A stretch of DNA of 64,000 nt, taken from NCBI GenBank assembly GCA_017451025.1, contig JAFSSM010000022.1:5420-69419 (forward strand), written 5' to 3'. The stretch is from Synergistaceae bacterium (GTDB lineage Bacteria > Synergistota > Synergistia > Synergistales > Aminobacteriaceae). The translations under genes were made by a program, and so were the position numbers. Positions 4,865 to 47,013 of this stretch are shown here, piece by piece. Below the pieces are notes generated by a model. It did no database searches. It saw only the letters and a list, made by a program, of their open reading frames with translations, and was not told the origin of the DNA. Every line of letters starts with the position of its first letter. The stretch's first letter is position 1.

Positions 4865-5084
4865 GACTAGTCCGCATTGCCAGAACAGCAACGGTCCCGA
4901 AAACACGTTGATATGGTGGTGCGATATACCCGGCGAGGAAATAGCCATAACCCGCCGTATAGTAGAGAACTCACCTGCCCTGTACGGCATAGTGAAGTCA
5001 ATTGTGAAGTCCGGACCCGGCGGCAGTGTAATAGCTGAAGCTCGGGAAGTGCTGAAGCTGATAGAGGAGGGTAATAATGCCTGA
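4857..5084 (+). CDS. Hypothetical protein inside the Lar-like array (no zinc ribbon)
   Basis: 75-aa ORF overlapping both neighbours by 8 nt. No recognisable motif. Confidence 0.4.
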   Translation: MAKTSPHCQNSNGPENTLIWWCDIPGEEIAITRRIVENSPALYGIVKSIVKSGPGGSVIAEAREVLKLIEEGNNA

Positions 5085-5439
5085 ATTAAAGCCCTGTCCG
5101 TTCTGCGGGCATGAAGTGCAAATGTCATATCGAGATGTCCAAATCTATTGGGCAGAGCCCGGCCAAGTTGCTCGTGTCTGGGAGATAAAGTGTCCTGAAT
5201 GCGGCGCGCACATGGAAGACCACTACGAACACCACCTCTATGATAAATGGAACGGATTAACGCGCCTGGACCGGTGCCCGATATGCGGGGATTACATCCG
5301 GCGGATAGAACCGTACGAGGATTACGATGAAGGCACATATTATTATGTGGAATGCCGGAAATGCGGGCTGAGCACGCGGAAATTCTCTGACTCGATGGAA
5401 GCGCGGGTGTTTTGGAATGCCAGGCACGGACGGGGTTAA
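5077..5439 (+). CDS. Lar-like protein with two zinc-ribbon modules, paralog 6
   Basis: Module 1 is KPCPFCGH...CPECG...LYDKWNGL. Module 2 is CPICG...CRKCG...ARVFWNAR. Confidence 0.65.
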   Translation: MPELKPCPFCGHEVQMSYRDVQIYWAEPGQVARVWEIKCPECGAHMEDHYEHHLYDKWNGLTRLDRCPICGDYIRRIEPYEDYDEGTYYYVECRKCGLSTRKFSDSMEARVFWNARHGRG

Positions 5440-5475: not shown

Positions 5476-5772
5476 ATGAACGTAACACAAAACGCAGACC
5501 TGATTGAAGCCAAAACCAGATTAACCAACATCAAGGCAGACCAGGCCGCTTTGAAATTAAAGATTATGCAGGGAGAATTTGTTTCCATTGCTGAAGTGAA
5601 CAAACAGCAGGCAGAAGCTATTTCGCGGGTCCGTACTAAAATGCTCGCAATCCCTGCAAAATTATCACGCAAACTTTCAGGGCAGGAGTTCTCTCCTCAG
5701 GAAGTAAACGTCATTCTGACTGAGGCAGTCAACGAAGCCTTAAACGAACTGGCTGGTGAAACACAGGCATGA
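5476..5772 (+). CDS. Terminase small subunit, Nu1 C-terminal-like (no N-terminal wHTH)
   Basis: Sits immediately upstream of, and overlaps, the GpA-type large terminase. KTRLTNIKADQAALKLKIMQGEFVSIAEV...AIPAKLSRKL resembles the Nu1 C-terminal half. Confidence 0.55.
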   Translation: MNVTQNADLIEAKTRLTNIKADQAALKLKIMQGEFVSIAEVNKQQAEAISRVRTKMLAIPAKLSRKLSGQEFSPQEVNVILTEAVNEALNELAGETQA

Positions 5773-7562
5773 ACTTTGAGCTGTTCCGTCCTCCTCCAGA
5801 ATTAAGCATCTCGGAATGGGCTGACGAATACCGTTATCTTTCTGCAGAAGGCAGTCCGGAACCCGGCAAATGGTCAACCTCGCGTGCTCCCTACCAGCGC
5901 GCAATGATGGATGCCGTCAAATCCCACGAACGCGTAGTAATTATGACGGCGGCACAGGTCGGCAAAAGCGAGATACTCCTTAACACAATAGGCTACTACA
6001 TTCATTATGAGCCATGCCCGATGTTAATGGTTCAGCCCACGCTCGAGATGGGCAAAGACTTCTCCAAGAAAAAATTCACTCCAATGTTACGCGATACACC
6101 CGTGTTATCCTGCCTAATCGACCTCAAGGCACGGACTAAGGACAACAATATTCTGGATAAACGTTTCGGCAATTCAGCGATAGTGTGCATAGCGGGAGCA
6201 AATTCCCCTGCAGGCCTCGCAAGCAGGTCAATACGGATACTTCTGCTAGACGAGACAGACAGGTACCCTCCGAGTGCAGGCAATGAAGGAGACCCTATCT
6301 CGTTAGCCATGAAGCGCACCACGAATTTTTGGAACCGCAAGATAATTCAGGTAAGCACACCCACGCACAAAAATTCACCGATTTCTGAGGCGTTCGAACT
6401 TTCCAGCAAAAACGAATGGACCGTACCCTGCCCTAAATGCGGGAAATATCAGCCGTATATCTGGGACAATTTCCTTTACCGTGAACGTACTGAACCCGTA
6501 ATGAAGTGCCAGTATTGCGGCCAGGAGAGTGCGGAGCGCGAGTGGAAGCGCGGCACCGGGAAATGGGAGCAGGGCTGTGAATCGGACATAGCGGGTTTCC
6601 ACATGAATGCATTTGCTTCACCGTGGGTAACTTGGCCGGAACTTGTGGCTAATTACTTTGAGGCGTATTCATACGGTGAAGAGAAACTGAAGGTGTGGAT
6701 AAACACTGTGCTGGGAGAACCGTACGAGAACCCTGAAGGGGTAATTGAAATAGAGAGCATTCACGAGAACTGCGAGGAGTACGGAGCGCAGGTACCGGAT
6801 GAAGTGTTAGTGCTGACGTGCGGAGTGGACACGCAGGATGACCGTTTGGAGCTTGAAGTAGTAGGCTGGGGGATGGGCAATCAGTCATGGGGAATAGAGT
6901 ACAAGATTTTCTACGGCGATACCAGCCAAAAAGAAGTGTGGGAACAACTCGACAGCTATTTATGCCAGGCGTTCAAGAAAGCAACGGGAGAAGCACTCCT
7001 CGTTTCCTGTACGTGTATAGATTCGGCAGGGCATAACACGGACATGGTGTACCGTTTCTGCCATTCCCGATTGAAGCGGCGGATATTCCCGATAATAGGC
7101 AGAGGGCAGTGGGGCAGGCCGAGCGTAACGAAGCCAAGCCGGAATAACCGTTACCGTGTGCCGTTGTTCACGCTTGGAGTGTCGACGATTAAGGGAATGC
7201 TTCACACGCGGCTGCGAGCCCAAAAAGGACAGGGCGGTTATTGTCATTTTCCGAAGGACAAGGGCACGGGGTATGACGAAATATATTTTGCGGGACTGCT
7301 CAGCGAGCGGATGGTAATGAAGCGTCTCGGGGGGCGTGAGGTGGTACGCTGGGAACAGCGGGACACGAAGACGCGGAATGAACCGTTGGACTGCCGTGTG
7401 TACGCAATCGGAGCGTACGAGATATTCTCGCCGGATTTACGGAAGTATGAAGCAGGGTTGAACGTGAAGCGCAAGCCGGTGAAACACGAGGAAGTTCCGG
7501 CCAAGAAAGAGCAGATAGTGAGAGCACCGAAACGCCGTGTGATAAGGGGGATAATGTGGTAG
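5769..7562 (+). CDS. Terminase large subunit, lambda GpA family
   Basis: 597 aa. N-terminal ELSISEWADEYRYLSAEGSPEPGKWSTSRAPYQRAMMDAV is typical of GpA. Walker A-like AAQVGKSE. Confidence 0.9.
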   Translation: MNFELFRPPPELSISEWADEYRYLSAEGSPEPGKWSTSRAPYQRAMMDAVKSHERVVIMTAAQVGKSEILLNTIGYYIHYEPCPMLMVQPTLEMGKDFSKKKFTPMLRDTPVLSCLIDLKARTKDNNILDKRFGNSAIVCIAGANSPAGLASRSIRILLLDETDRYPPSAGNEGDPISLAMKRTTNFWNRKIIQVSTPTHKNSPISEAFELSSKNEWTVPCPKCGKYQPYIWDNFLYRERTEPVMKCQYCGQESAEREWKRGTGKWEQGCESDIAGFHMNAFASPWVTWPELVANYFEAYSYGEEKLKVWINTVLGEPYENPEGVIEIESIHENCEEYGAQVPDEVLVLTCGVDTQDDRLELEVVGWGMGNQSWGIEYKIFYGDTSQKEVWEQLDSYLCQAFKKATGEALLVSCTCIDSAGHNTDMVYRFCHSRLKRRIFPIIGRGQWGRPSVTKPSRNNRYRVPLFTLGVSTIKGMLHTRLRAQKGQGGYCHFPKDKGTGYDEIYFAGLLSERMVMKRLGGREVVRWEQRDTKTRNEPLDCRVYAIGAYEIFSPDLRKYEAGLNVKRKPVKHEEVPAKKEQIVRAPKRRVIRGIMW

Positions 7563-7593: not shown

Positions 7594-7821
7594 ATGACAG
7601 AACGGGAGATGTTAATACAAAGACTGAACCTGTACCAGAAGGCAGAACGAGATGTAACGCTTCACGGCCAGACGGTAGAACTTGAGGGGATGCGGATAAC
7701 ACGAGCAAGCCTTGAAGATTTGCGGAAGGAGATAAGGAACTTGAAGCAGGAACTATCATTGATGGATAAACAGGAAGCACAAAGAAAGAGGAGCCGTATC
7801 CGGGCAATAATTCCATTATGA
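7594..7821 (+). CDS. Head-tail joining protein gpW-like
   Basis: 75-aa ORF between GpA terminase and the lambda-type portal (lambda order Nu1-A-W-B). Confidence 0.6.
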   Translation: MTEREMLIQRLNLYQKAERDVTLHGQTVELEGMRITRASLEDLRKEIRNLKQELSLMDKQEAQRKRSRIRAIIPL

Positions 7822-8066
7822 CATACACGCAGACCACTAAGGAAATAGTTTATGACGACGGATTTTTGGTGAAGGAACATGTGCATGTATCGCTGAAACT
7901 CCGGAGATGTCCGTTTTGCGGCAAGAAGGGGAAAGTTATTCACACATCCGGTGAAGACCAGGCAGACATGATAAGCATTGAGTGTGAGGGATGCGGGGGA
8001 GCGTGCGGGGAATACCTGACGCACGAGGAAGCCGCAGTTGCGTGGAACAGGAGAGCTAGAGGTTAG
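7818..8066 (+). CDS. Lar-like zinc-ribbon protein, paralog 7 (outlying copy)
   Basis: RRCPFCGKKG...CEGCGG...AAVAWNRR. ATGA overlap with the gpW-like ORF. Confidence 0.65.
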   Translation: MTYTQTTKEIVYDDGFLVKEHVHVSLKLRRCPFCGKKGKVIHTSGEDQADMISIECEGCGGACGEYLTHEEAAVAWNRRARG

Positions 8067-8371
8067 CTGGCCTTGACGGCTAAGTACACCTGAACTCCCG
8101 CAACGATTATTGCAGACAGCCCGATAATCCCCCCAAGCAGGAATTGCCAGAATGTCCCGCGCGACGAAAATCCTGAAACGTACGCAACAATTGTATCGGC
8201 TAATCCTTCTGCTTGCCGGGACAACGCTTTGACATCACCGCGTATCTCCGCGATTTCTACACGCATCTGCGATAACTGCGACTGAGTCCTCGCTTCACTG
8301 GCTTCCATTTTTGTCTCCATGCGTTTCATGATTTCGTTGAACATGTCCTTGCGCACATAAACTTCATCCAT
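8063..8371 (-). CDS. Small coiled-coil protein with C-terminal TM anchor (XhlA-like architecture), antisense paralog 1
   Basis: ATG at 8371 with GAGGTG upstream. MDEVYVRKDMFNEIMKRME..., TM FLLGGIIGLSAIIVAGVQVYLAV. Its stop overlaps the Lar-7 stop (TTAG). Confidence 0.65.
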   Translation of the reverse strand: MDEVYVRKDMFNEIMKRMETKMEASEARTQSQLSQMRVEIAEIRGDVKALSRQAEGLADTIVAYVSGFSSRGTFWQFLLGGIIGLSAIIVAGVQVYLAVKAS

Positions 8372-8395
8372 AGTTTTCACCTCTAGATATATTGA

Positions 8396-8420
8396 TTGGG
8401 GATGTAATTATTATATCATG
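8396..8420 (-). promoter_or_regulatory. Conserved 25-nt module, copy A (minus strand TGATATAAT-N6-A-TCCCCAA; overlaps portal ATG)
   Basis: Plus strand TTGGGGATGTAATTATTATATCATG. See findings. Confidence 0.45.
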
Positions 8421-9836
8421 CAGATAACTAACTCCGGTTATTCCGAACACGGCGCTTCCAGACGCAAAACCAGCCTCATCAAGTGGCACTCATCCAGCAA
8501 ATCACCTCACGAGGACATCAGCGAAAATTCAGCACTCTTGCGTGAACGCTCCAGAGACCTCTACATGGGCGGCGGACCCTTAGGACGCGGTGCCATCGAC
8601 AGAATTGCCCTCAACGCTATCGGCAGAGGCCTAAAGCTCAACGTCAGGATTGACCCTGCCCTGCTGAACATGTCCGAACAGCAGGCCTCAGCTTGGAGTG
8701 CCCGCACCGAAGCATTGTTCGACTATTGGGCATCAAGCAGGAACGCTCACTCCGGAAGGGAGTTATCCTTTTACGATTTGCAGTGCTTAGCCTTAAAGTC
8801 TATCCTTATTGACGGCGAAGTCCTCGCAATTATCGAGTACACACCGAATATCTCAATCAGGCTCATTGAGGCCGAACGCATTATGACACCGCCCGACAGG
8901 AACAGCAAACTCATTGACGAAGGAGTTGAACTCAATGAATGGGGAGACCCTGCCGCATTCCACATCGCAAACCGCAACCCGAACGCCGAATTATTGGGAC
9001 AGAAACATTTGGACTGGGTCAGGATTCCGGTTACCAATTCAACACTGCACCTGTTTATCCGTGAACGTATCGGCCAGCACAGAGGCGTACCCTTCCTCGC
9101 TCCCGTAATCGTACAGCTCAAACAGTTATCACGTTACACGGAAGCCGAACTTATGGCGGCAGTTGTTGCGGGGATGTATTCTGTGTTCTTCGAGCACCCG
9201 CCGCGCGAGGACGGCATGTTAGGGAGCGACGAATACGCGTCAGAACAGGGATATGGTGAGACCAGCGGGCTTGAAGGGTTAAGCACTGAGATGATGTACG
9301 GGAGCGTGATAGACCTTCCCGACGGAGTGAAGGCCAGCAGTTTATCGCCAGGCCGTCCAAACCAGAACTTCAACGGTTTCATTGAGGCACTTGCGCACCA
9401 AATCGGGGGAACTCTGGGCATTCCGGAAGAGTTATTGTTCCTGCACTTCACGGCCAGCTATTCAGCATCCAGGGGTGCACTCCTCGAAGCATGGAAGGTG
9501 TTTAAGTATTGGCGGGCATGGTTTGCGGAGAATTTCTGCCAGCCGGTTTATGAGGCATGGCTTGAGGAACAGGTCAATGCAGGCAGGATTGAGGCACCGT
9601 TATACTGGCGGGATGATTTCACGCGGAGCCAGTATGCTTGGGCTGAATGGGTGGGACCGAGTCAGGGGCAGTTGAACCCTGTGCAGGAAGTTGAAGCGGC
9701 GGTAATGAAGATACAGAACAACTTATCGACATATCAGCGTGAATGCAGTGAATTGACGGGCGAGGACTGGGACTTGGTGATGAGTGCACTCACCCGTGAA
9801 CGAATGAAATTACCACAAGCGGATGAAAATACTTAA
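8418..9836 (+). CDS. Portal protein, lambda family
   Basis: 472 aa, positioned after gpW. Sequence character of the lambda gpB family. No AGGAGG-type SD. Confidence 0.85.
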   Translation: MQITNSGYSEHGASRRKTSLIKWHSSSKSPHEDISENSALLRERSRDLYMGGGPLGRGAIDRIALNAIGRGLKLNVRIDPALLNMSEQQASAWSARTEALFDYWASSRNAHSGRELSFYDLQCLALKSILIDGEVLAIIEYTPNISIRLIEAERIMTPPDRNSKLIDEGVELNEWGDPAAFHIANRNPNAELLGQKHLDWVRIPVTNSTLHLFIRERIGQHRGVPFLAPVIVQLKQLSRYTEAELMAAVVAGMYSVFFEHPPREDGMLGSDEYASEQGYGETSGLEGLSTEMMYGSVIDLPDGVKASSLSPGRPNQNFNGFIEALAHQIGGTLGIPEELLFLHFTASYSASRGALLEAWKVFKYWRAWFAENFCQPVYEAWLEEQVNAGRIEAPLYWRDDFTRSQYAWAEWVGPSQGQLNPVQEVEAAVMKIQNNLSTYQRECSELTGEDWDLVMSALTRERMKLPQADENT

Positions 9837-9932
9837 TGCCGCGACTATCCACGCTAGGGCCGCAAACATTAATGCGGTATCAGCAACTTTGTTAAGTCTG
9901 TTCAGCTTGCGTTTGCGTTCTTCGTCGGTCAT
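9810..9932 (-). CDS. Mini single-TM protein (40 aa), below ORF-track cutoff
   Basis: ATG lies 1 nt after the stop of the upstream minus-strand gene, with GGGGGTG upstream. MTDEERKRKLNRLNKVADTALMFAALAWIVAALSIFIRLW. Overlaps the portal 3' end by 27 nt. Confidence 0.45.
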   Translation of the reverse strand: MTDEERKRKLNRLNKVADTALMFAALAWIVAALSIFIRLW

Positions 9933-9935
9933 TGG

Positions 9936-10286
9936 CTACACCCCCAATAATGTTTTTATTGCTGGCAAATAAGGTGCAGCAGTTATCAGTACGGCTATAA
10001 CTCCTGCAATTACACTAATTATTGTCCAGCGGCGGCCTGCCGCATTCTCCATAGCATCTAGCCTGTCCCGGATTGCCTTGATGTCTGACGCTAAACTCTC
10101 TGACTCGCGTTTGCTCTCTGCACGGTAAACTTCAAGTTTTGCGTCGCTGTCTGCCTTGTAGGCTTTAACGTCAGCCCGTATTTCTGCAATTAACGCGGCA
10201 GTCCTGGCCTCGCTTGCGGCATTCTGGGCTTCGATGCGGCGGATAATTTCCTGGAACACATCATTGCGTACATATTCATTGTCCAT
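9936..10286 (-). CDS. Small coiled-coil protein with C-terminal TM anchor, antisense paralog 2
   Basis: ATG at 10286 with GAGGTG upstream. MDNEYVRNDVFQEIIRRIE..., TM WTIISVIAGVIAVLITAAPYL. Confidence 0.65.
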   Translation of the reverse strand: MDNEYVRNDVFQEIIRRIEAQNAASEARTAALIAEIRADVKAYKADSDAKLEVYRAESKRESESLASDIKAIRDRLDAMENAAGRRWTIISVIAGVIAVLITAAPYLPAIKTLLGV

Positions 10287-10313
10287 CAAATTACACCTCA
10301 TTATTTTTTTGCT

Positions 10314-10338
10314 TTAGGGATGTGAAAATTATAGCATG
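10314..10338 (-). promoter_or_regulatory. Conserved 25-nt module, copy B (minus strand TGCTATAAT-N6-A-TCCCTAA; overlaps protease ATG)
   Basis: Plus strand TTAGGGATGTGAAAATTATAGCATG. Confidence 0.45.
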
Positions 10339-11127
10339 TACAAAATTATCAATCACAACGGCAATAACGAAATTCTCCTTTACAGCCTCATTGACTACGG
10401 CATTACCGCCAATAAGGTAATCGATGCCGTCAATTCCTTTGACCCGGACAAAACTATTACCCTCCGCATTAACTCAGAAGGCGGAGACGTTTTCGATGGT
10501 ATCGCACTCTACAATTACCTCAAGGACCGTAACGTCAACGTCATCATTGACGGAGAATGTTCTTCGAGTGCAAGCATTATAGCTATGGCCGGTAAAACTA
10601 TCACCATGAAGCGCGGAAGTCTCCTCATGATTCATAACCCTATGACCTGTGCCTCGGGAGACAGCGAAGCTTTCAAAGCCTATGCAGACATGCTCGGCAA
10701 AATCACCAGCAGCGTAATTGCTATCTATCAGTCCAGGTCTAACCTCAACGCTGACCAGATACGCGACCTCATGGCCGCAGAAACTTGGCTTGAGCCGGAA
10801 ATGGCTAAAGAGTACGGATTTATCGACGACTTCGAGAGCGTAACCTTTGACGAAGCATTGAACGGCCGTTACGACGAAGGGGTAAGGGCAGAGCGCGAAC
10901 GCATAAGGGAGCTTGACGAAATGTACACTCCCGCCCGCGCAATAATCCTCAACAAAGCCAAGTACATCGACCCCCGTTCCGCAAGGGATGTTGCACTGGA
11001 AATTCTGCGTGCAGAGGCGAAAAACACAGCACTTCACCCTAACGGAATATCCCTTCCTTCCGGTTTCAGCGACCAGATGATGAACGACACAATAGACAGC
11101 ATTATTTCAAGAAAGAGAGGATTTTGA
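10336..11127 (+). CDS. Head maturation protease, ClpP-related serine protease
   Basis: GGDVFDGIALYNYLK...SSASIIAMAG...MIHNP. Positioned between portal and capsid genes. Confidence 0.85.
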   Translation: MYKIINHNGNNEILLYSLIDYGITANKVIDAVNSFDPDKTITLRINSEGGDVFDGIALYNYLKDRNVNVIIDGECSSSASIIAMAGKTITMKRGSLLMIHNPMTCASGDSEAFKAYADMLGKITSSVIAIYQSRSNLNADQIRDLMAAETWLEPEMAKEYGFIDDFESVTFDEALNGRYDEGVRAERERIRELDEMYTPARAIILNKAKYIDPRSARDVALEILRAEAKNTALHPNGISLPSGFSDQMMNDTIDSIISRKRGF

Positions 11128-11130
11128 CGA

Positions 11131-11505
11131 ATGGCGGAATATTACAGGAAATTGACCGAAATCACCGAAATTCCGGCACCTGACGATTTGGTGCAGGGAG
11201 GGTATGTTGCAGACATCGTTGCTCTGGCCTCGCCCGGCGACTACAAGCGCGGGCTTGTCCTCATGAGCGGCGAAGACGGGTTTATCCCCGCAACAAGTGC
11301 AGGTATCGGCAGTGCTGATGAGGCATGCATTCTCGCGGAAAACATCTCATTCACCGAAGGAACTTGCAGTGCCAGCGCATACTTTGGGGGGATTATCAAT
11401 TCCGAGAGGGTTATTCTGGGCTATGAGACTGAAAGCGACAATCACTCTGAGCTTATTTCGGCGGTAAAACCTGTGCTTCGTGCACACAAGCTGTTTTTGG
11501 TCTAA
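11131..11505 (+). CDS. Head decoration protein (gpD-position)
   Basis: 124-aa ORF between protease and E-type capsid gene. Assigned mainly by position. Confidence 0.5.
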   Translation: MAEYYRKLTEITEIPAPDDLVQGGYVADIVALASPGDYKRGLVLMSGEDGFIPATSAGIGSADEACILAENISFTEGTCSASAYFGGIINSERVILGYETESDNHSELISAVKPVLRAHKLFLV

Positions 11506-11519
11506 GGAGGACTTCCATC

Positions 11520-12542
11520 ATGAACTACTATGAACCTAAATTTTTACGTGCGGCTATCAGGAAAATTACTCCGGCACGCCAGTTCTTCAGGCATAGATTT
11601 TTCGCAGACACAATGACTTTCCCCACTAAGTCCGTTACTTTCGAGTATGCACGCAGTCCCCGTGTAGTTCTGCCCTACGCAAACGAGGAAGCAGGCAGTG
11701 TGAACGTTGCACGCTCGGGGTATCAGGCACTCACATTTACGGCACCGTTGCTCTCAGGCCACAGGATAATCACCCCGTCAACACTTAACGATAAGCTGTT
11801 CGGTGAATCACAGTGGGACAGCGGCTATACCCCTGAGGACAGGGCGCGCGAGCTTGCGGTTATGGACTTGATGGAACTGCAAGACAGCCTTTACCGTCAG
11901 GAAGAGTATATGTGCGCAAGGTTGATGCAGGACGGGAAATTGACGGTGGACAGTCCTGGCGTGAAGGCGGAAATAGATTACGGGTTTACTCAGATTGAGA
12001 CCGTAACGAACGCCAACAAATGGACAACTACTTACGATATTCTGGGAAAACTGTTGAAGTGTGCGCGTGAGCTCCGCAAAAACGGGATAAACCCTGACAC
12101 ATTGATAGTGGGACATGAAGTGAGCGAGGCAATCAACAAGAATGAAGGGGTATTGAAGCTCCGCAATGACCAGTGGGTGAATATTCCGGAGCCTGGCAGT
12201 CTGGAAGACGGGATAACCTATGTGTGCCAGCTTCGTGCACCTGGAATTTACCTGAATGTGCTTGAGTATGACGAATACTATTCGGACAAGGACGGAAATA
12301 TCCTGCCGCTTGTTGACCCTAAGACGGCAATCCTGATGTCAAGCAGGGACCGCAACATGATGCTTTACGGAGCGGTTGTGTACCTGGACAAGTCTGGGGA
12401 GTATGTGTCGGAAATGGCGGAATATGTGCCTTACGTGGTGAATGAGTATGACCCGCCGGTGAAGAAGTTAGTGGTGAGTTCGCGTCCCTTGCCGATGCCT
12501 AGGGACATTGAGAGCTGGATAGTGTTAAAGGATTTGGTGTAG
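11520..12542 (+). CDS. Major capsid protein, lambda gpE family
   Basis: 340 aa. AGGAGG SD. N-terminus and length typical of the capsid E family; follows the decoration gene. Confidence 0.8.
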   Translation: MNYYEPKFLRAAIRKITPARQFFRHRFFADTMTFPTKSVTFEYARSPRVVLPYANEEAGSVNVARSGYQALTFTAPLLSGHRIITPSTLNDKLFGESQWDSGYTPEDRARELAVMDLMELQDSLYRQEEYMCARLMQDGKLTVDSPGVKAEIDYGFTQIETVTNANKWTTTYDILGKLLKCARELRKNGINPDTLIVGHEVSEAINKNEGVLKLRNDQWVNIPEPGSLEDGITYVCQLRAPGIYLNVLEYDEYYSDKDGNILPLVDPKTAILMSSRDRNMMLYGAVVYLDKSGEYVSEMAEYVPYVVNEYDPPVKKLVVSSRPLPMPRDIESWIVLKDLV

Positions 12543-12575
12543 GGTGAGTACCTGAGGAGTGAGAAATACTCACCC
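12542..12575. terminator. 9-bp hairpin between convergent capsid and antisense genes
   Basis: GGGTGAGTA-16 nt-TACTCACCC. No clear U-tract on either strand. Confidence 0.3.
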
Positions 12576-12586
12576 TGTCAATGGCT

Positions 12587-12811
12587 TTAACCTGCACTGC
12601 GCGACAGAAAATACATGACGACAGCCAAGCCAATCTGCATAGCTGCAAATACTCCTGCTATTATTGAGACAGTTATTCCCCAAAAATTAACTTGCCTGTT
12701 CACGGTGTCTTTCAGATCATCTATGCGCTGATTAGTTTTCTCGTCCAGCATGAGCAAAGTATCCTGCTCTGCGCCGTAGACATCTTTGCGGACAAAATCC
12801 TTCTCGTTCAT
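12587..12811 (-). CDS. Small coiled-coil protein with C-terminal TM anchor, antisense paralog 3
   Basis: ATG at 12811 with GAGGTAG upstream. MNEKDFVRKDVYGAEQD..., TM ITVSIIAGVFAAMQIGLAVVMYFL. Confidence 0.6.
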   Translation of the reverse strand: MNEKDFVRKDVYGAEQDTLLMLDEKTNQRIDDLKDTVNRQVNFWGITVSIIAGVFAAMQIGLAVVMYFLSRSAG

Positions 12812-12816
12812 GTTAT

Positions 12817-12990
12817 CTACCTCTGCAATAACAGCCACACAGAAAACACGAACGACAACGTCAGCGCTGAAAATGAGAACAATGAACAGCCAATCAGGAA
12901 TCTGCGCATTTTTTGCCAGTCCTTTTTGTCCTGCTCAACACTTGCTGCTATTTTTTGGGACAATTCTTCTATCGTCGGAGCTATACGCAT
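12817..12990 (-). CDS. Small single-TM protein (57 aa), below ORF-track cutoff
   Basis: ATG at 12990 with GAGGTG upstream. MRIAPTIEELSQKIAASVEQDKKDWQKMRRFLIGCSLFSFSALTLSFVFSVWLLLQR. Its stop lies inside the SD of the next minus-strand gene. Confidence 0.5.
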   Translation of the reverse strand: MRIAPTIEELSQKIAASVEQDKKDWQKMRRFLIGCSLFSFSALTLSFVFSVWLLLQR

Positions 12991-13015
12991 AGTACTTCAC
13001 CTCATTAATTTTTAT

Positions 13016-13040
13016 TTGGGAATGGAGAGATTATAACATG
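13016..13040 (-). promoter_or_regulatory. Conserved 25-nt module, copy C (minus strand TGTTATAAT-N6-A-TTCCCAA; overlaps ATG at 13038)
   Basis: Plus strand TTGGGAATGGAGAGATTATAACATG. Confidence 0.45.
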
Positions 13041-13394
13041 AACTTTCAGGGCTGGGACTTCCGCTCTATCTATGAACAGCCACCCCCTGACTTGATGGAG
13101 GCCGAAGCATTCTTCGCCGCCTTCGCCAAATTCCACGACATTGACGGCACAAGCATTGAGTGCATTTTCACGAGGGCTAAACGCCAGCCCGTAGCAATAA
13201 TTCCCGGAGCAAACGGGGAGAACATAGACGGAATAACTTCGTTTACCAGCGTGTTAATCGTGAAGGACGAGGATATATCGGGAGCCGAACAGGGAGGAAG
13301 TTTGAGGATAGACGGTGTGCACTGCCGGATAATGACGGTGTCGCACCCGATTATGGGCATTACCAGGATGGAACTTGAGGGTTATGCGGGGTAA
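13038..13394 (+). CDS. Head completion / head-tail joining protein (gpFII-position), hypothetical
   Basis: 118 aa, first gene after the capsid gene. Assigned by position and size only. Confidence 0.35.
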   Translation: MNFQGWDFRSIYEQPPPDLMEAEAFFAAFAKFHDIDGTSIECIFTRAKRQPVAIIPGANGENIDGITSFTSVLIVKDEDISGAEQGGSLRIDGVHCRIMTVSHPIMGITRMELEGYAG

Positions 13395-13441
13395 TTTGAC
13401 TTAATTATCTTCGCAGCATTCTTTCGAAAGGTGATTATACC

Positions 13442-13993
13442 ATGATTAGGTTTTCCTTCACGGCTAACACACGGGACCTGCGCTACCTTTCCCGAACGGA
13501 CAAGCTCCTCCAAAAAGCCCTGTACATGGCCAAGAAAGACACAATGCGTCTCCTCAAAAACGAGGCGGCCCGCCAGGTCAGCGCACAATACTGGCTTACG
13601 CAGAAACAGGTCAAGGAAGCAATTCGTGAGGAGCCTGCGGGAATACGCGTCAGGTCCGGAATGCTGTCGCTCGAAAAGTACAAGATTTCCCCCACGCACC
13701 CGGCTGGCGGCAAACGTAAACTTCTCGGTGCAGTCAAACGTTCCGGAGGCCTTAAGCCATTAGGCAACGCATTCCTCAGGCCTGCACGCGGAGGCGGCTT
13801 CAAGCCGTATATGCGTCCCTCAAACGGCAAAGGCAGGCCGAAGCTCATAACCGGACCGTCAATCGCTCAGACAGTGGGCAACCCCGAAATTATGGAGAGA
13901 CTGCAGGCACGGGCAGGCGAGACATTCCAGAACAGGGCAGATTTCTACGTGAGCAGACTCGGAATTTTTGCACCTAAAGGGGGCTGGAGATAA
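13442..13993 (+). CDS. Virion morphogenesis / minor tail protein (gpZ-position), hypothetical
   Basis: 183 aa, basic. Position and size fit lambda gpZ-like proteins; not verified. Confidence 0.35.
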   Translation: MIRFSFTANTRDLRYLSRTDKLLQKALYMAKKDTMRLLKNEAARQVSAQYWLTQKQVKEAIREEPAGIRVRSGMLSLEKYKISPTHPAGGKRKLLGAVKRSGGLKPLGNAFLRPARGGGFKPYMRPSNGKGRPKLITGPSIAQTVGNPEIMERLQARAGETFQNRADFYVSRLGIFAPKGGWR

Positions 13994-14558: not shown

Positions 14559-14807
14559 ATGGATGACCAGAGAATATATATCGGGCCGAACGTTAGGACG
14601 CTCGGATTATTGCGGAACCAGGTATTTATTGAGGGACTGCCCGGCCAAGTGCAGGATGCAGCTGCGAAATTTCCGGAAGTTGCGGACCTGATTGTGCCTG
14701 TGTCAGAATTTGACGAAGCAGAGCGTAAGGCACATACGGCAGGAGAGCACCTGCACAGGGTGTATCAGGAATTTGTGCAGGCACTCGGCAAACAGGGCAA
14801 GGATTAA
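14559..14807 (+). CDS. Hypothetical protein
   Basis: 82-aa ORF with AAGGAG SD. Confidence 0.4.
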   Translation: MDDQRIYIGPNVRTLGLLRNQVFIEGLPGQVQDAAAKFPEVADLIVPVSEFDEAERKAHTAGEHLHRVYQEFVQALGKQGKD

Positions 14808-15205
14808 CGGGCTAATTTTTCCTTGATGGCTTCCTGCAGGACCCGGGAAAAATTGAGGCCTGCTCTTTTGCCCTCGTCAATCATCCATTTCGGGAGGGTA
14901 ACCATTTTGTTGACGGACTTGTTCGCAATTTTTGCGCGGACCGGGGGCATGAATGCCTCAACTGGTGCAACAATCTGGTTAGCCCTGAGGTTTTTCTTGA
15001 GTCCCAGAATGTCGGAGGGTCCAGGAATTTGGTCGTTGTCCTGCCCGCCGCCCCAGAGGAAGCCTTCCAGTGCTTCGCGGGCATTATGCAGTGCTTCTTC
15101 GATGGTGTTTCCGCTGGTAATACGGCCGGGCAAATCAGGGAAACGTACGATTACGCCTTCTTCCGTGAAGCTGAACACGGCGGGAAAAATGTATCTGTCT
15201 TTCAA
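14804..15205 (-). CDS. HicB-like antitoxin-fold protein with C-terminal RHH (no HicA partner found)
   Basis: TTG start with AAAGGAG SD. FPAVFSFTEEGVIVRFPDLPGRITSGNTIEEALHNAREALEGFL, plus C-terminal TLPKWMIDEGKRAGLNFSRVLQEAIKEKL. Confidence 0.65.
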   Translation of the reverse strand: MKDRYIFPAVFSFTEEGVIVRFPDLPGRITSGNTIEEALHNAREALEGFLWGGGQDNDQIPGPSDILGLKKNLRANQIVAPVEAFMPPVRAKIANKSVNKMVTLPKWMIDEGKRAGLNFSRVLQEAIKEKLAR

Positions 15206-18227: not shown

Positions 18228-18586
18228 CTACGAGCTGATGCCCCAACTCGATGTATAGTAAATATCCCCTACGTTATCCCGCTTCACGGTTACCTGCTTA
18301 ACCTTGCCGTTGATGCGGCGGCTCCGAAAATACCCGTACCATTTCTTCATCAGCTTTATTCTTCCGCGTGCCTCCTCCAGCTTCCCCCCCCGCTTGCCGC
18401 AATGTAAATGACTTGTTCATTGTTATCTTGCGGAATTTCGGCAGAGATGCCCGCTTCCCTCGCTTGCGACTGCGGAAACACCCCTCGTAAGCCCTCTAAA
18501 TGACCGCACAGTTCGTATTTGCGTATTCGTTCCCCGAACATTCGGTAATACCGCCGGTGCAGTGCAATGCAATGGTTACGCAACAT
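18228..18586 (-). pseudogene. Degenerate TnpB N-terminal-like relic, frame broken at a G8 (C8 on plus) tract
   Basis: ATG at 18586. After the homopolymer the +1 frame reads GRIKLMKKWYGYFRSRRINGKVKQVTVKRDNVGDIYYTS, resembling the TnpB WED-region pattern G-R-L-K-L-P-K-L-G...G-K-I-x-x-V-T-V-x-R. Confidence 0.35.
18384..18391. repeat. C8/G8 homopolymer interrupting the minus-strand ORF
   Basis: cttCCCCCCCCgctt. One extra G would fuse the two minus-strand frames. Confidence 0.9.
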
Positions 18587-18618: not shown

Positions 18619-18643
18619 TTTGGGATGAATTTATCTTATCACA
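18619..18643 (-). promoter_or_regulatory. Conserved 25-nt module, copy G (minus strand TGATAAGAT-N6-A-TCCCAAA), upstream of the tube gene
   Basis: Plus strand TTTGGGATGAATTTATCTTATCACA, followed by AAGGAG and the tube ATG at 18660. Confidence 0.4.
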
Positions 18644-22571: not shown

Positions 22572-22952
22572 ATGAACGATACTAAGAATTTCAGCGTTAA
22601 GGAGTTTGCCTGCCATCATTGCGGGCAGAACAAAATTGACCAGCGCGTTATCGACTTGTGCCAGAAAATACGCGATGAACTGGGCGTGCCGGTACGCGTC
22701 AACTCAGGCTACAGATGCCCGGCTCACAATGCCCGCGTCGGCGGCGTAAAGGGAAGCAGGCACGTGCTCGGACATGCCGCAGACCTCTCCAGTTCACGGA
22801 GCGGTATGTTAATGTTCGAGGCCGTCAAACGCCTGCAGGGAGAAGGCAGATTGCCGGAATTGGGTTACTGCATTCTCTACAAGACGAAGAATTTTATCCA
22901 CGTGGACATCGACAAGCGTCCAAGCGGCAGCATGTGGGAAGTGAGGCCATGA
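22572..22952 (+). CDS. Peptidase M15A-type cell-wall hydrolase (endolysin candidate)
   Basis: FSVKEFACHHCG...VNSGYRCPAHNARVGGVKGSRHVLGHAADL. Confidence 0.8.
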   Translation: MNDTKNFSVKEFACHHCGQNKIDQRVIDLCQKIRDELGVPVRVNSGYRCPAHNARVGGVKGSRHVLGHAADLSSSRSGMLMFEAVKRLQGEGRLPELGYCILYKTKNFIHVDIDKRPSGSMWEVRP

Positions 22953-23380
22953 CTTACGGCAATTACTTTTCCGGCGGAGTTGGACTGCTTGGTGCATTCT
23001 TGTCGTGGTACCTGGGAGTTTTGGACGGCACTGTGAAACTCCTGGTAGTTATGGCCGTGCTGGACCAGGTTTCGGGATTATTGAAAGCGTCAGTTCTGCG
23101 GAAATGGTCTAGTGAGGCAGGGTTTCACGGCATCGCCAAGAAAGTATTCATGTTTATGCTTGTGGGGATAGCCAATGTCATTGATAAGGAGATGCTCGGC
23201 GGAACTGATGTGCTGCGGGATGCTGTGAGCTTGTTCTACATTGCCAACGAGGGGATAAGCATAATCGAGAACGCTATAGAGAGCGGTGCACCGGTGCCCG
23301 AAGGCTTCAAGGAATGGTTTATTTCGTGGCGGAACAAGAAGTTAATCAGCCATAATGTGCCTGGCGACAGCGAGGATTAA
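22949..23380 (+). CDS. Holin (TcdE / phage holin_4-type, multi-TM)
   Basis: ATGA overlap with the endolysin. LLVVMAVLDQVSGLLKA...GIAKKVFMFMLVGIANVIDK...FYIANEGISIIEN. Confidence 0.75.
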   Translation: MTYGNYFSGGVGLLGAFLSWYLGVLDGTVKLLVVMAVLDQVSGLLKASVLRKWSSEAGFHGIAKKVFMFMLVGIANVIDKEMLGGTDVLRDAVSLFYIANEGISIIENAIESGAPVPEGFKEWFISWRNKKLISHNVPGDSED

Positions 23381-23448: not shown

Positions 23449-23473
23449 TTGGGGATGTGGTCATCATAACACA
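23449..23473 (-). promoter_or_regulatory. Conserved 25-nt module, copy F (minus strand TGTTATGAT-N6-A-TCCCCAA), with no minus-strand gene behind it
   Basis: Plus strand TTGGGGATGTGGTCATCATAACACA. It points into the holin 3' end. Confidence 0.4.
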
Positions 23474-24584: not shown

Positions 24585-24892
24585 ACGATTACGTCCTAAT
24601 CATCAACCCTGGCCGGATTAACTTTGCTCCGGATAACCTCTTAGAGGAAATTGTGCAGAACGTGAACACTATCTGTTCCACACCGAAATTCTCCGTCCCT
24701 ATGGACCGGGCTTTCGGAATTGATACATCCCTCCTCGATGAACCTATGAGCAAAGTTGCGGCCAAGTACAGGGCAGAAATTATCCAGGCAGTCCGGAAAT
24801 TTGAACCCCGTGCACGCATTTCCAGAGTGGAGTTTTACAGGGACGAAGAGGCTAAACAGTTCCGGCCTAAAGTCTGGCTCAGGCTTGCTTAG
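24581..24892 (+). CDS. Baseplate wedge protein, gp25/gpW family
   Basis: 103 aa. IVQNVNTICSTPKFSVPMDRAFGIDTSLLDEP...IIQAVRKFEPRARISRVEF. Confidence 0.75.
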   Translation: MNDYVLIINPGRINFAPDNLLEEIVQNVNTICSTPKFSVPMDRAFGIDTSLLDEPMSKVAAKYRAEIIQAVRKFEPRARISRVEFYRDEEAKQFRPKVWLRLA

Positions 24893-25386
24893 TTCAAATC
24901 TATTCTCGGTGCCTCCAGTTTGATGTGCACCCCCGCCTTAATCCTTACCTCGTTCAACGCCTCTATCTCAACGTCGTTTCCGGCCTTCACCTTCACGCCG
25001 TTATCTGTCTCTATCGTTATGTCCTTCACGCAATGAACGCTTAACGTACTTGAAGCACGGTCATACTGAATCATCGTACCGTCTGCGTAGGTGAGCGTGT
25101 GTGCATTGCCTGTCTGGAAGGGCGGCTCATTCTTGCCGTCATAGAAGCTCCCGAGAATCACTCCGAACTCGTCGCCCTGCCCGGACATTAAGCACACAAC
25201 ATGTTCGTCCACATCGACGTAATGCTCTGACTTGTCGGCGTGGGAGTTGGGGGTTAATAGCGGGAGCCAGTCCGAAATTTTGCCCGGTATGTCCGGGAAA
25301 AGGACACGTGCGGCGTGTTTTTCGGGCGAGAACTCGCAGACACGCCCTATCCTCATAACTGATGCGTATTCGTTATTCTGCCTCAT
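24889..25386 (-). CDS. Baseplate assembly protein V (spike), inverted relative to neighbours
   Basis: MRIGRVCEFSPEKHAARVLFPD...SDWLPLL... plus a C-terminal beta-helix-like repeat. Its stop overlaps the gp25-like stop (TTAG). Confidence 0.75.
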   Translation of the reverse strand: MRQNNEYASVMRIGRVCEFSPEKHAARVLFPDIPGKISDWLPLLTPNSHADKSEHYVDVDEHVVCLMSGQGDEFGVILGSFYDGKNEPPFQTGNAHTLTYADGTMIQYDRASSTLSVHCVKDITIETDNGVKVKAGNDVEIEALNEVRIKAGVHIKLEAPRIDLN

Positions 25387-25777
25387 CTTCGAGATACTCC
25401 TTAAGTTTCAGGTCTAACGCGGCGTGCATTACCGTACCGTTCGCGGCTATACGGGTGTACTTTTCGCCAAGACTCTCAATCACCCACAATCCCCCGCCCA
25501 TTACATCCCCGCCTAACGTGAAGGCTAATGCTTCGTGGGCATTCATGGCGGTATACAGGTCAGTTATGCACTCGCTGACATTAACCCCCTGTGATTCATC
25601 AAGCTCAATAGTGAGTGAGGCAGTTGATGCATTGAGGCCGGTAAATTCGAGTACTCCCTTTTTCCCGATAACCTTATGTTCTGCGTAGTTCACCGAATTG
25701 CTGAACGATAAGTCTGTGAAGTTTTTGACGTTTTGTTCGCTGACTTCGAATTCATATTCACCGAGTGAGCCTATCAT
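25373..25777 (-). CDS. Tail protein U (P2 gpU-like), inverted
   Basis: ATG at 25777 with AGGAGG SD. MIGSLGEYEFEVSEQNVKNFTDLSFSNSVNYAEHKVIGKKGVLEFTG...GGLWVIESLGEKY. Confidence 0.65.
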   Translation of the reverse strand: MIGSLGEYEFEVSEQNVKNFTDLSFSNSVNYAEHKVIGKKGVLEFTGLNASTASLTIELDESQGVNVSECITDLYTAMNAHEALAFTLGGDVMGGGLWVIESLGEKYTRIAANGTVMHAALDLKLKEYLEDEAE

Positions 25778-25779
25778 AT

Positions 25780-26070
25780 TTAACCTCCTGCATAGACATC
25801 CGGGCTCCCGGCCGCAACACTTGACCCGCACGCTACCGGGTCTCCTATTCTCCCTAACTGCATTCCGTTGCAGTACACCGTAGAACTTCCGGCCGCTAAC
25901 ACCGAAGCATGGCATTGCGGAACAGGGTTGCAGTGCACAGCCCACGAGTCGCCCTGCCGGTGAGCAGGTATGTTATTCACGAACACGTCGGGACTTCCTG
26001 ACGTTGAGGGTCTTGGCGGCCATGAATCATGTCCTGTGCAGTTATCGCCTAATCTGGTAACTGGCGGCAT
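25780..26070 (-). CDS. PAAR-domain spike-tip protein, inverted
   Basis: MPPVTRLGDNCTGHD...PAHRQGDSWAVH...GRIGDPVACGS (PAAR-type repeats). Confidence 0.75.
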   Translation of the reverse strand: MPPVTRLGDNCTGHDSWPPRPSTSGSPDVFVNNIPAHRQGDSWAVHCNPVPQCHASVLAAGSSTVYCNGMQLGRIGDPVACGSSVAAGSPDVYAGG

Positions 26071-27379: not shown

Positions 27380-27775
27380 CTATTTTCCTGCGGTGAATGG
27401 TTGAGACCCCGTAATTTCCTTCACTATCCTGATTACTTCACTCGGTGTAAGGGATGAGTCAGGGCGTACCTCACGCTTTTCCTTGCGGTCAGACGCTATC
27501 CACAGATATATTCCCGTAAAGATGCCCAGTGCCGCGAGGAATATACCGATTGCTCCAAGCACCCAATATACCGCCGTCGCAAGTGTGTCTATTCTGCCGA
27601 GAATTAATGCCTGGCCATTCTCTAATGCACCGGCACGTGCCTCTAAGCCCCCTAATCTCTGCTCTATTCCGTCAAGCCGTTTCAATACTTCCGGCTGGTA
27701 ACTCTGCCCTGACTGCTGGAGTACATATACTCTGCCGTCTATCTCTGCCGTTATTTCTCTGTCAGCACTGTCCAT
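27380..27775 (-). CDS. Bitopic membrane protein (131 aa), antisense pair member 2
   Basis: AGGAGG SD. MDSADREI..., TM VYWVLGAIGIFLAALGIFTGIYLWI, C-terminal SLTPSEVIRIV. Paralog of 27789-28133. Confidence 0.6.
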   Translation of the reverse strand: MDSADREITAEIDGRVYVLQQSGQSYQPEVLKRLDGIEQRLGGLEARAGALENGQALILGRIDTLATAVYWVLGAIGIFLAALGIFTGIYLWIASDRKEKREVRPDSSLTPSEVIRIVKEITGSQPFTAGK

Positions 27776-27788
27776 GAATGTACCTCCT

Positions 27789-28133
27789 CTATTTCCCCAT
27801 GCTCTGGAGACGTGAATTTATACCCTCGTTAATCATCTTCATTACCTCGCTAGGTGTAAGTGAAGGTTCCGGCTTGGGTTCCGGCTCCGGTTTTCTGCGA
27901 AGCCCCGGCAGAACTGCCAGTGCCGCAAGGAATATCCCAATAACTGCCAATTCCCAATACACACTGGTCTGCAGATTAGCTATATCATGCTGAAGTATTA
28001 CCTGACCCTCACGCAGATAACCTATCTCTGTATGCATCGACGATATTTCCTGTTTCTGCCGTGCCTGCTCGGCCTCAATCGCTGCAACCTTGCCGTAAAG
28101 TTCTATTAATATCTCTCTGTCTGTACTCTCCAT
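27789..28133 (-). CDS. Bitopic membrane protein (114 aa), antisense pair member 1
   Basis: AGGAG SD. MESTDREI..., TM VYWELAVIGIFLAALAVLPGL, PEPEPKPEP linker, SLTPSEVMKMI. Confidence 0.6.
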   Translation of the reverse strand: MESTDREILIELYGKVAAIEAEQARQKQEISSMHTEIGYLREGQVILQHDIANLQTSVYWELAVIGIFLAALAVLPGLRRKPEPEPKPEPSLTPSEVMKMINEGINSRLQSMGK

Positions 28134-28151: not shown

Positions 28152-28177
28152 TTGGGGGGATAGTTAATTTTATCATG
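28152..28177 (-). promoter_or_regulatory. Conserved module, copy D (minus strand TGATAAAAT-N7-CCCCCCAA; overlaps gpI ATG)
   Basis: Plus strand TTGGGGGGATAGTTAATTTTATCATG. Confidence 0.4.
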
Positions 28178-46925: not shown

Positions 46926-47013
46926 CGAATTTTTCTCTCCTGTATCTGTTTGGGATGTGTCGATTCTATCACGTATAATTACACGAAAACACAAAGGAGC
47001 AAATTTTCACACT

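Follow-up and report, generated by a model that had tools for sequence, protein, structure and literature searches.

Small antisense membrane-protein genes at late-gene junctions of a Synergistaceae prophage belong to an unnamed family and may be morons

Why should a prophage carry small genes that face backwards between its own head genes? The question is raised by a 64,000-nucleotide (nt) window from a Synergistaceae bacterium (assembly GCA_017451025.1, contig JAFSSM010000022.1, positions 5,420 to 69,419, forward strand). The window is the whole stretch of DNA analyzed here, and its coordinates are used throughout; L001 to L024 are labels for the related and public loci that were compared with it. 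An integrated prophage occupies approximately 1 to 33 kb of the window, with host genes (ferritin, DUF2400, and ybaB-like) beyond. As the original prediction had it, the plus-strand head series of this prophage, in which TerL, gpW, Lar-like, portal, ClpP protease, decoration, capsid, and head-tail attachment genes were all confirmed, is interrupted by minus-strand genes, here called A to E. Their sequences indicate a family of small membrane proteins and, on balance, favor the view that the cassettes are morons, i.e., independently transcribed accessory units inserted backwards at late-gene junctions, with a membrane-level role that is likely exclusion.

All five open reading frames (ORFs) are present where they had been reported. 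Gene A (8063-8371, minus strand) encodes 102 amino acids (aa) from its ATG, with a YVRKD head, a helical stalk, and a C-terminal transmembrane (TM) span. It lies between the Lar-like zinc ribbon gene (7818-8066, plus strand) and the portal gene (8418-9836, plus strand), and its stop overlaps the stop of the former. Gene B (9936-10286, minus strand), encoding a 116-aa member of the same family, stands between portal and the ClpP-type protease gene (10336-11127, plus strand). Gene D (9810-9932, minus strand) follows 3 nt downstream of B; its 40-aa product has a basic N-terminus and a C-terminal TM span, and its overlap with the portal 3′ end (9836) is 27 nt, as previously given. Between the major capsid gene (Phage_cap_E; 11520-12542, plus strand) and a head-tail attachment-like, or connector, gene (13038-13394, plus strand), gene E (12817-12990, minus strand; 57 aa with a C-terminal TM span) is the first gene of a unit completed by gene C (12587-12811, minus strand), a short 74-aa member with an FVRKD head, a short stalk, and a C-terminal TM span. 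The predicted Shine-Dalgarno sites were also recovered: A, B, and E each have GAGGTG 6 to 7 nt before their ATG, and C has GAGGTA upstream, within the 3′ end of E. That of gene D is GGGGGTG. In public records of a Synergistaceae metagenome-assembled genome (MAG), these proteins are listed as hypothetical proteins, and all five ORFs are called as genes in a public scaffold of the same prophage (L011).

Genes A, B, and C had been proposed to be paralogs. This holds directly for A and B (BLASTP E = 5e-14), whereas the direct match of C to either is weak, and C is joined to the family through a 91-aa protein of L003, which begins with MDEVYVRKDVF and matches the C-terminal half of C (8e-11). A hidden Markov model (HMM) of the family picks exactly A, B, and C among the window ORFs (2e-35, 2e-32, and 5e-8, respectively), and by this profile the three are one protein family. 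The original prediction was to fail if the ORFs were not conserved as intact frames in related prophages; such relatives were found, and the frames of A, C, and E are kept. Comparison of A with L003 and L004 by the Nei-Gojobori method gives proportions of nonsynonymous (pN) and synonymous (pS) differences of 0.13 to 0.15 and 0.73 to 0.76, respectively. By the same method, the ratio of nonsynonymous to synonymous substitution rates (dN/dS) against L010 is 0.09 for C and 0.30 for E, which is 55% identical there, and values for the reference genes are 0.07 (portal) and 0.08 (capsid). The overall dN/dS range of 0.05 to 0.30 points to protein-coding constraint. Substitution patterns thus indicate purifying selection on genes A, C, and E and mark the minus-strand ORFs as real genes, not chance ORFs. 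A plus-strand ORF at the third locus (12692-13036, 114 aa) was rejected as the true gene because L010 retains only 64 aa of it, whereas purifying selection has maintained C and E.

What kind of protein do the cassettes encode? Each of the five has, as foreseen, a single hydrophobic span at its extreme C-terminus, with 2 to 9 residues beyond the span. The AlphaFold2 model of A is one continuous helix (residues 8 to 101; mean predicted local distance difference test score, 88), and the predicted architecture of the family is one long helix comprising a conserved head, a stalk of variable length, and a C-terminal TM anchor. The head signature is M-x-x-E-YVRKDVF-x3-M-x-RIEA-x2-AASEAR, the stalk contains EIRGEVK-type repeats, and the middle changes length by whole repeats. 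The conserved TM helix, ..AVIVAGVQVYLALKG (..AGVQVYLALK), is followed by 1 to 13 residues, including one basic residue. The cassette membrane proteins are probably tail-anchored, as judged from these models. The small partners were also considered as a single family, and this was rejected: neither D and the 53-aa partner of L003 nor E and the 62-aa partner of L024 show any detectable similarity, and by these comparisons the partners are analogous to each other in architecture only.

When 1.84 billion representative proteins were searched with a profile, 115 clusters were recovered at E <= 1e-3, including 22 at E <= 1e-10, and no Pfam or NCBIfam assignment was found among the 115. The best library matches of the wider family are PHROG 5820 (18 of 60 family members; best, 1.9e-14) and PHROG 9415 (9 of 60; best, 3e-16), both with function not annotated; the match of gene A itself is weak (7e-5) and covers the C-terminal half of a profile of 200 positions. 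No match was found among isolated phages by megablast with the head region or by tblastn with a consensus-like family member. In IMG/VR, protein-pattern scans and a strict DNA pattern found no relatives, and of the 16 loci matched by a loose YVRKD pattern, the HMM recognized a family member in none. Two DNA-pattern scans of Joint Genome Institute metagenome contigs likewise found no relatives, and ENA, Logan, and NCBI assemblies were the only sources of family members. By these searches the family is new and unnamed in Pfam, NCBIfam, and the annotated phage collections covered, and "YVRKD" is used as a working name.

Are these genes a fixed part of the late region? L008, a Synergistaceae prophage in a goat MAG, has a portal protein with 62% identity and the same head genes but no antisense ORF. 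Its gpW/portal, portal/protease, and capsid/connector gene pairs overlap or abut, and its decoration-capsid gap (approximately 200 nt) is empty. No credible family member was found in L008, where the threshold of a broader HMM gives only a 37-aa TM-only fragment. In other relatives, the occupied junctions vary. L003 has family members at gpW-portal and at portal-protease (91 aa plus the 53-aa partner), and L022 has an insertion at gpW-portal and a 55-aa small partner only at portal-protease; neither has the capsid-connector insert. Four genes (150, 64, 105, and 68 aa) lie between tail_X and gpD in L009, and a pair (106 and 62 aa) lies between holin and gpD in L024. In L002, the neighbors of the family member are a 67-aa gene and an M15 peptidase gene; in L005 to L007, the neighbor is tail_X.

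The window and its relatives together provide seven junctions (gpW-portal, portal-protease, capsid-connector, tail_X-gpD, holin-gpD, endolysin-proximal, and baseplate J-tail I), and at all seven the family runs antisense to the late genes on either side, for which the chance under random orientation is (1/2)^7, or approximately 0.008. Packing is extreme, with convergent stop codons that abut or overlap. In L003, L009, and L024, family members are likewise followed by small partners analogous to D, and A-type genes are also found alone, without a partner. These comparisons show that genes A to E are accessory. In the close relative of the E-C locus, L010 (1-404), the head-tail attachment gene diverges after approximately 58 codons, and a 120- to 133-aa ORF is called on the opposite strand, which could reflect a further insertion or a chimeric assembly.

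The positions of A and B-D, which flank the portal gene in the window, and the filling of the same two junctions in L003 and L022 would be explained if the proteins were membrane tethers for head assembly or DNA packaging. T4 gp40 is the comparison for a portal membrane tether. The antisense orientation, the host-type promoters described below, and the absence of the genes from L008, with the same head genes, make such tethers highly improbable. A role in portal assembly was rejected, as the genes are dispensable in L008 and family members are scattered over the tail and lysis regions of relatives.

What might transcribe the cassettes? Each has an extended -10 motif, TGnTATAAT, 27 to 41 nt upstream of its start codon. 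For gene A, this is TGATATAAT (8410-8418, minus strand), the T of which complements the A of the portal ATG (8418); it is followed by ACATCCCC and the Shine-Dalgarno site GAGGTG at 8378-8383. The motif of the B-D unit, TGCTATAAT (10328-10336, minus strand), abuts the protease ATG (10336), with GAGGTG at 10294-10299. That of the E-C unit, TGTTATAAT (13030-13038, minus strand), abuts the head-tail attachment ATG (13038), with GAGGTG at 12998-13003. The three divergent intergenic regions, of 46 to 49 nt, are alike and read CATG-n-TATAAT, 6 nt, AT(C/T)CC(C/T), GAGGTG, and ATG. The perfect extended -10, TGNTATAAT, occurs five times in the window versus 1.1 times expected, and three of these five sites are those 38 to 41 nt upstream of A, B, and E. 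By a regular-expression scan, the motif also lies 27 to 41 nt ahead of cassette starts in L001, L003, L004, L009, L010, L022, and L024 and is absent from L008.

The host ybaB/ebfC-like gene, with its motif at 46963-46971 (minus strand), is preceded by TGATAGAAT-N6-ATCCCAAAC, the same architecture as that of the cassettes. This suggests that the extended -10 plus ATCCC start-region pattern is common in this Synergistaceae genome, and the cassette motif looks like an ordinary host RNA polymerase promoter, as far as can be predicted. TATAAT might instead be a mere spacer between the Shine-Dalgarno site and the ATG of the downstream late gene. This was rejected as the sole explanation, because the distance from motif to late gene varies in L009, L022, and L024, while the distance to the antisense start is constant, and because the host gene also has the motif. 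In some loci the motif is separate from the start codon of the downstream late gene, and it therefore belongs to the antisense unit rather than to late-gene translation initiation.

The promoter motif on each cassette, with the same architecture at a host gene, is the basis for reading the cassettes as morons, and the moron branch of the original prediction fits on three counts: the cassettes are absent from L008 with the same gene order, they occupy variable junctions, and each carries a host-type extended -10 motif. Morons, in the Juhala/Hendrix description as given in PMC3594210, are additional DNA that separates genes contiguous in a related phage; they have a promoter and a terminator of their own and a base composition unlike that of their neighbors, and they are expressed from the repressed prophage. 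Extra DNA is seen here by comparison with L008 and, for capsid-connector, with L003 and L022, and the cassettes of eight loci appear from their sequences to have their own promoter, which is absent from L008. HK97 gp15 is a moron-encoded inner-membrane protein, with its gene between late genes (tail chaperone/tape-measure), which blocks DNA entry and confers superinfection exclusion (PMC3594210). Like gp15 and lambda bor and lom, genes A to E are extra genes at late junctions, with their own predicted promoter and a small membrane product. Unlike them, they show no sequence similarity to those genes, have no terminators, are always antisense, form three to five diverged paralogs in one prophage, have overlapping convergent stops, and have a -10 that abuts the start of the next gene. 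Lambda bor, too, is transcribed in the direction opposite to that of the late genes, and the layout of genes A to E is unusual but not unprecedented.

If the cassettes are morons, each unit would produce one or two small membrane proteins from its TGnTATAAT promoter and strong Shine-Dalgarno site, transcribed by host RNA polymerase in the lysogen when the late operon is silent. The proteins would be inserted in the inner membrane, their helical domain facing the cytoplasm, and the conserved head could offer a binding surface whose distance from the membrane varies. Acting at the envelope, they would most likely exclude superinfecting phages or alter membrane-level processes, like other moron-encoded membrane proteins. 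Given predicted promoters and antisense orientation, conflict with late transcription would be head-on, and after induction late transcription would shut the units off. Expression timing, membrane topology, and exclusion function are what we infer from this arrangement, and several diverged paralogs per prophage would fit a defense-like role better than a single housekeeping lysis role. A broader proposal, which we hold only tentatively, is that the YVRKD proteins and their partners are a new tail-anchored class on compact promoter-bearing cassettes that spread among junctions, always antisense, such that placement is a built-in switch. The cassettes would be on in the lysogen and in early induction and would then be turned off progressively by late transcription from the opposite direction, giving either lysogeny-only exclusion or a transcription-coupled, antiholin-like lysis timer.

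Several findings weigh against the cassettes being exclusion morons. No canonical terminators were found at the 3′ ends of the units, unlike in morons as classically described, and the stop of A, like that of D, overlaps a neighboring gene. Compositional shifts are small, and the genes are short: GC is 0.44 to 0.50 in A to E versus 0.48 to 0.55 in their neighbors, and GC3 (GC at third codon positions) is 0.47 to 0.56 versus 0.57 to 0.66, with gpW an outlier among the neighbors (GC, 0.456; GC3, 0.487). Searches against known defense and exclusion families (PADLOC-DB) gave coiled-coil noise only (E >= 0.0004), with no consistent family. The topology is a prediction, with one basic residue after the TM span in each protein. 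The L024 and L002 cassettes adjoin lysis genes, and there is subthreshold resemblance to the XhlA and DUF2730 lysis-accessory families, considered below.

A strong 13-bp-stem hairpin lies at 12541-12576, between the capsid stop (12542) and the gene C stop (-19.5 kcal/mol; z = -3.0). It lacks a U-tract on both strands and is therefore not a canonical intrinsic terminator, but it may be an mRNA-stabilizing or partial termination element. Rfam and tRNA scans of the window found nothing. With no terminators, transcripts should enter the gpW and terminase, portal, and capsid genes antisense, and such transcription could itself be the function, silencing leaky late expression in the lysogen or timing the late genes, with the ORFs secondary. 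Two orphan extended -10-like motifs with no ORF behind them also accord with this: TGGTATAAT (13434-13442, minus strand), fused to the ATG of the gene starting at 13442, and TGTTATGAT followed by CACATCCCCAAAA (23460-23468, minus strand) at the holin-gpD junction. A primarily antisense function is nevertheless very unlikely in view of the strong purifying selection on amino acid sequences, the family signature kept across 115 clusters, and the strong Shine-Dalgarno sites. The proteins clearly matter, and there may be a regulatory side-effect. The orphan motifs may be remnants of lost cassettes or promoters of pure antisense RNAs; the holin-gpD junction is where L024 has a family member and its 62-aa partner.

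Could the genes instead serve lysis? The original prediction had noted the architecture of XhlA-type lysis accessories, and the main alternative to morons is that A to E are XhlA-like proteins that, with TM partners, tune the phage's own holin and endolysin as a co-holin, antiholin, or releasin-like factor. XhlA acts together with the holin XhlB (PMC5589764). The architectural part of the comparison stands. XhlA-like proteins (PF10779; PBSX XhlA, SPP1 gp24.1, "XpaF1," and PHROG 1193) are approximately 80 to 120 aa in length and share with the YVRKD proteins a coiled coil at the N-terminus, a single C-terminal TM span immediately preceded by Trp, a short tail, and, often, an adjoining gene for a small membrane protein. 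Family membership does not follow. Against Pfam XhlA, gene A scores 10.7 bits (E = 0.61), versus a cut-off of 34.7, and B and C have no match; the YVRKD and AASEAR motifs are not in XhlA. Among 60 family members, 11 match PHROG 1193, "hemolysin" (best, 2e-8), and 2 match Pfam XhlA at E < 0.01 (best, 6.9e-5). In hhalign, the family scores 34.7 (probability, 84.5%) against an alignment of six annotated XhlA-type proteins, far above column-shuffled controls, which reach at most 22.5. When heptad blocks of XhlA were permuted with the TM span left intact, however, scores were 29.3 +/- 4.2, and 8 of 60 trials equaled or exceeded the real score. The profile similarity is therefore that of a generic heptad coil plus TM span, and on these comparisons XhlA membership is not supported.

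Gene position bears on the same question. Each of the six XhlA genes inspected, which come from Firmicute phages, immediately precedes a holin or endolysin gene and points the same way, whereas A to E are scattered and antisense in a Synergistaceae prophage. The window has a complete lysis cassette co-oriented with the late genes, consisting of endolysin (Peptidase_M15_3; 22572-22952, plus strand) and holin (Phage_holin_4_1, 112 bits; 22949-23380, plus strand) genes, approximately 10 kb (10 to 14 kb) from genes A to E. In favor of a lysis role, the L024 pair adjoins holin (with which it is convergent), the L002 member adjoins the M15 endolysin gene, and the four-gene cassette of L009 fills the slot held by endolysin and holin in relatives. 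DUF2730 (PF10805), the family of the Mu gp25 releasin, gives a weak match to gene A (19.2 bits, E = 0.0014), below its cut-off of 24.9. What the two have in common is small size, a phage origin, membrane location, and a helical domain in the cytoplasm, and the match covers the cytoplasmic part, including a YV.K..F-like motif. DUF2730 proteins have an N-terminal TM span (N-out, C-in), and their genes lie no more than five genes downstream of endolysin in transposable phages (PMC9239132). In the proteins of genes A to E, the TM span is C-terminal, and the genes are not near endolysin. With three to five diverged copies, host-type promoters, and dispensability in L008 as further points against it, a lysis role is unlikely, and the moron reading is favored over the XhlA reading.

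A further alternative is that the cassettes are small membrane toxins, abortive-infection systems, or addiction modules, for which the antidote would be the overlapping late mRNA or a paired protein. D and E, and perhaps the larger proteins as well, would harm the membrane once deregulated. D and E (40 to 57 aa, hydrophobic) match type I toxins in size and single TM span. In three phages, the D-like gene and the portal 3′ end share 27 to 39 nt, over which sense and antisense RNAs would pair. A HicB-like antitoxin gene forms another antisense island in the late region of the same prophage (14804-15205, minus strand), with no HicA gene seen beside it. Against this, no similarity to a known toxin or PADLOC family was found, A-type genes occur without a partner, and the combination of a perfect, constitutive-looking promoter and a strong Shine-Dalgarno site argues against a lethal product. 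A lethal product of the holin type, which would form membrane lesions that release or activate the endolysin on schedule, would also be hard to reconcile with a constitutive-type promoter. A toxin, abortive-infection, or addiction function is distinctly improbable.

To our knowledge, Synergistaceae phages are almost unstudied. If the cassettes encode lysogen-expressed exclusion factors, they would add a new tail-anchored architecture to prophage-encoded defenses. The prophage would also be a compact natural case in which one late operon is met head-on by transcription from several host-type promoters, a layout useful for the study of transcriptional interference as a lysogeny/lysis switch. If the proteins are lysis modulators, XhlA/releasin-type logic would extend to a diderm lineage in an unusual antisense layout.

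The prophage has further antisense islands, with promoter-like motifs in the same style. Two genes encoding 131 aa (27380-27775, minus strand) and 114 aa (27789-28133, minus strand) lie between baseplate J and tail P2_I. Their products are mutual paralogs (6e-19) with a coil, a "VYW" motif, a TM span, and a C-terminal tail, "SLTPSEV..I." They are tied to the YVRKD family through the intermediates P0036, P0038, and P0040 and are probable distant relatives, as far as sequence comparison goes. A promoter-like TGATAAAAT..ATCCCC is located at 28164-28172 (minus strand); with the preceding CA, it reads CATGATAAAAT..ATCCCC (28164-28174). Neither this fourth locus nor the promoter-like motifs figured in the original prediction. 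A 61-aa non-membrane ORF (18356-18541, minus strand) lies between the sheath and tube genes, with a promoter-like TGATAAGAT..ATCCCAAA at 18630-18638. The tail chaperone-tape-measure junction also has antisense membrane-protein genes in L009, L022, and L024. In L009 (3446-3533, minus strand), a 28-aa hydrophobic putative ORF (MKELVCFLMDITAFVLGWLIGRNSRDPR) begins at a CAT that is joined to the cassette promoter and extends over the gpD start as called.

The remaining head and packaging genes of the window are TerL (5769-7562), gpW (7594-7821), and a decoration-like gene (11131-11505), all on the plus strand. Lar-like (PF14354) zinc ribbon genes are unusually many in the early/packaging region of this phage group. 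They occur at 5077-5439, at 7818-8066, and upstream in the window, at 17373-18750 in L011, and at 13887-16378 in L022, and one is inserted between gpW and gene A. TerL is called as two ORFs of 221 and 390 aa, separated by a gap of approximately 320 nt, in L022 (10604-12764) and also in L023, which could reflect a frameshift, an insertion, or an intervening element. Within the plus-strand baseplate block of the window, gpU (Phage_P2_GpU) and a 165-aa ORF are on the minus strand (24889-25945). Their equivalents in L024 are co-oriented with their neighbors, and the arrangement in the window may be a local inversion.

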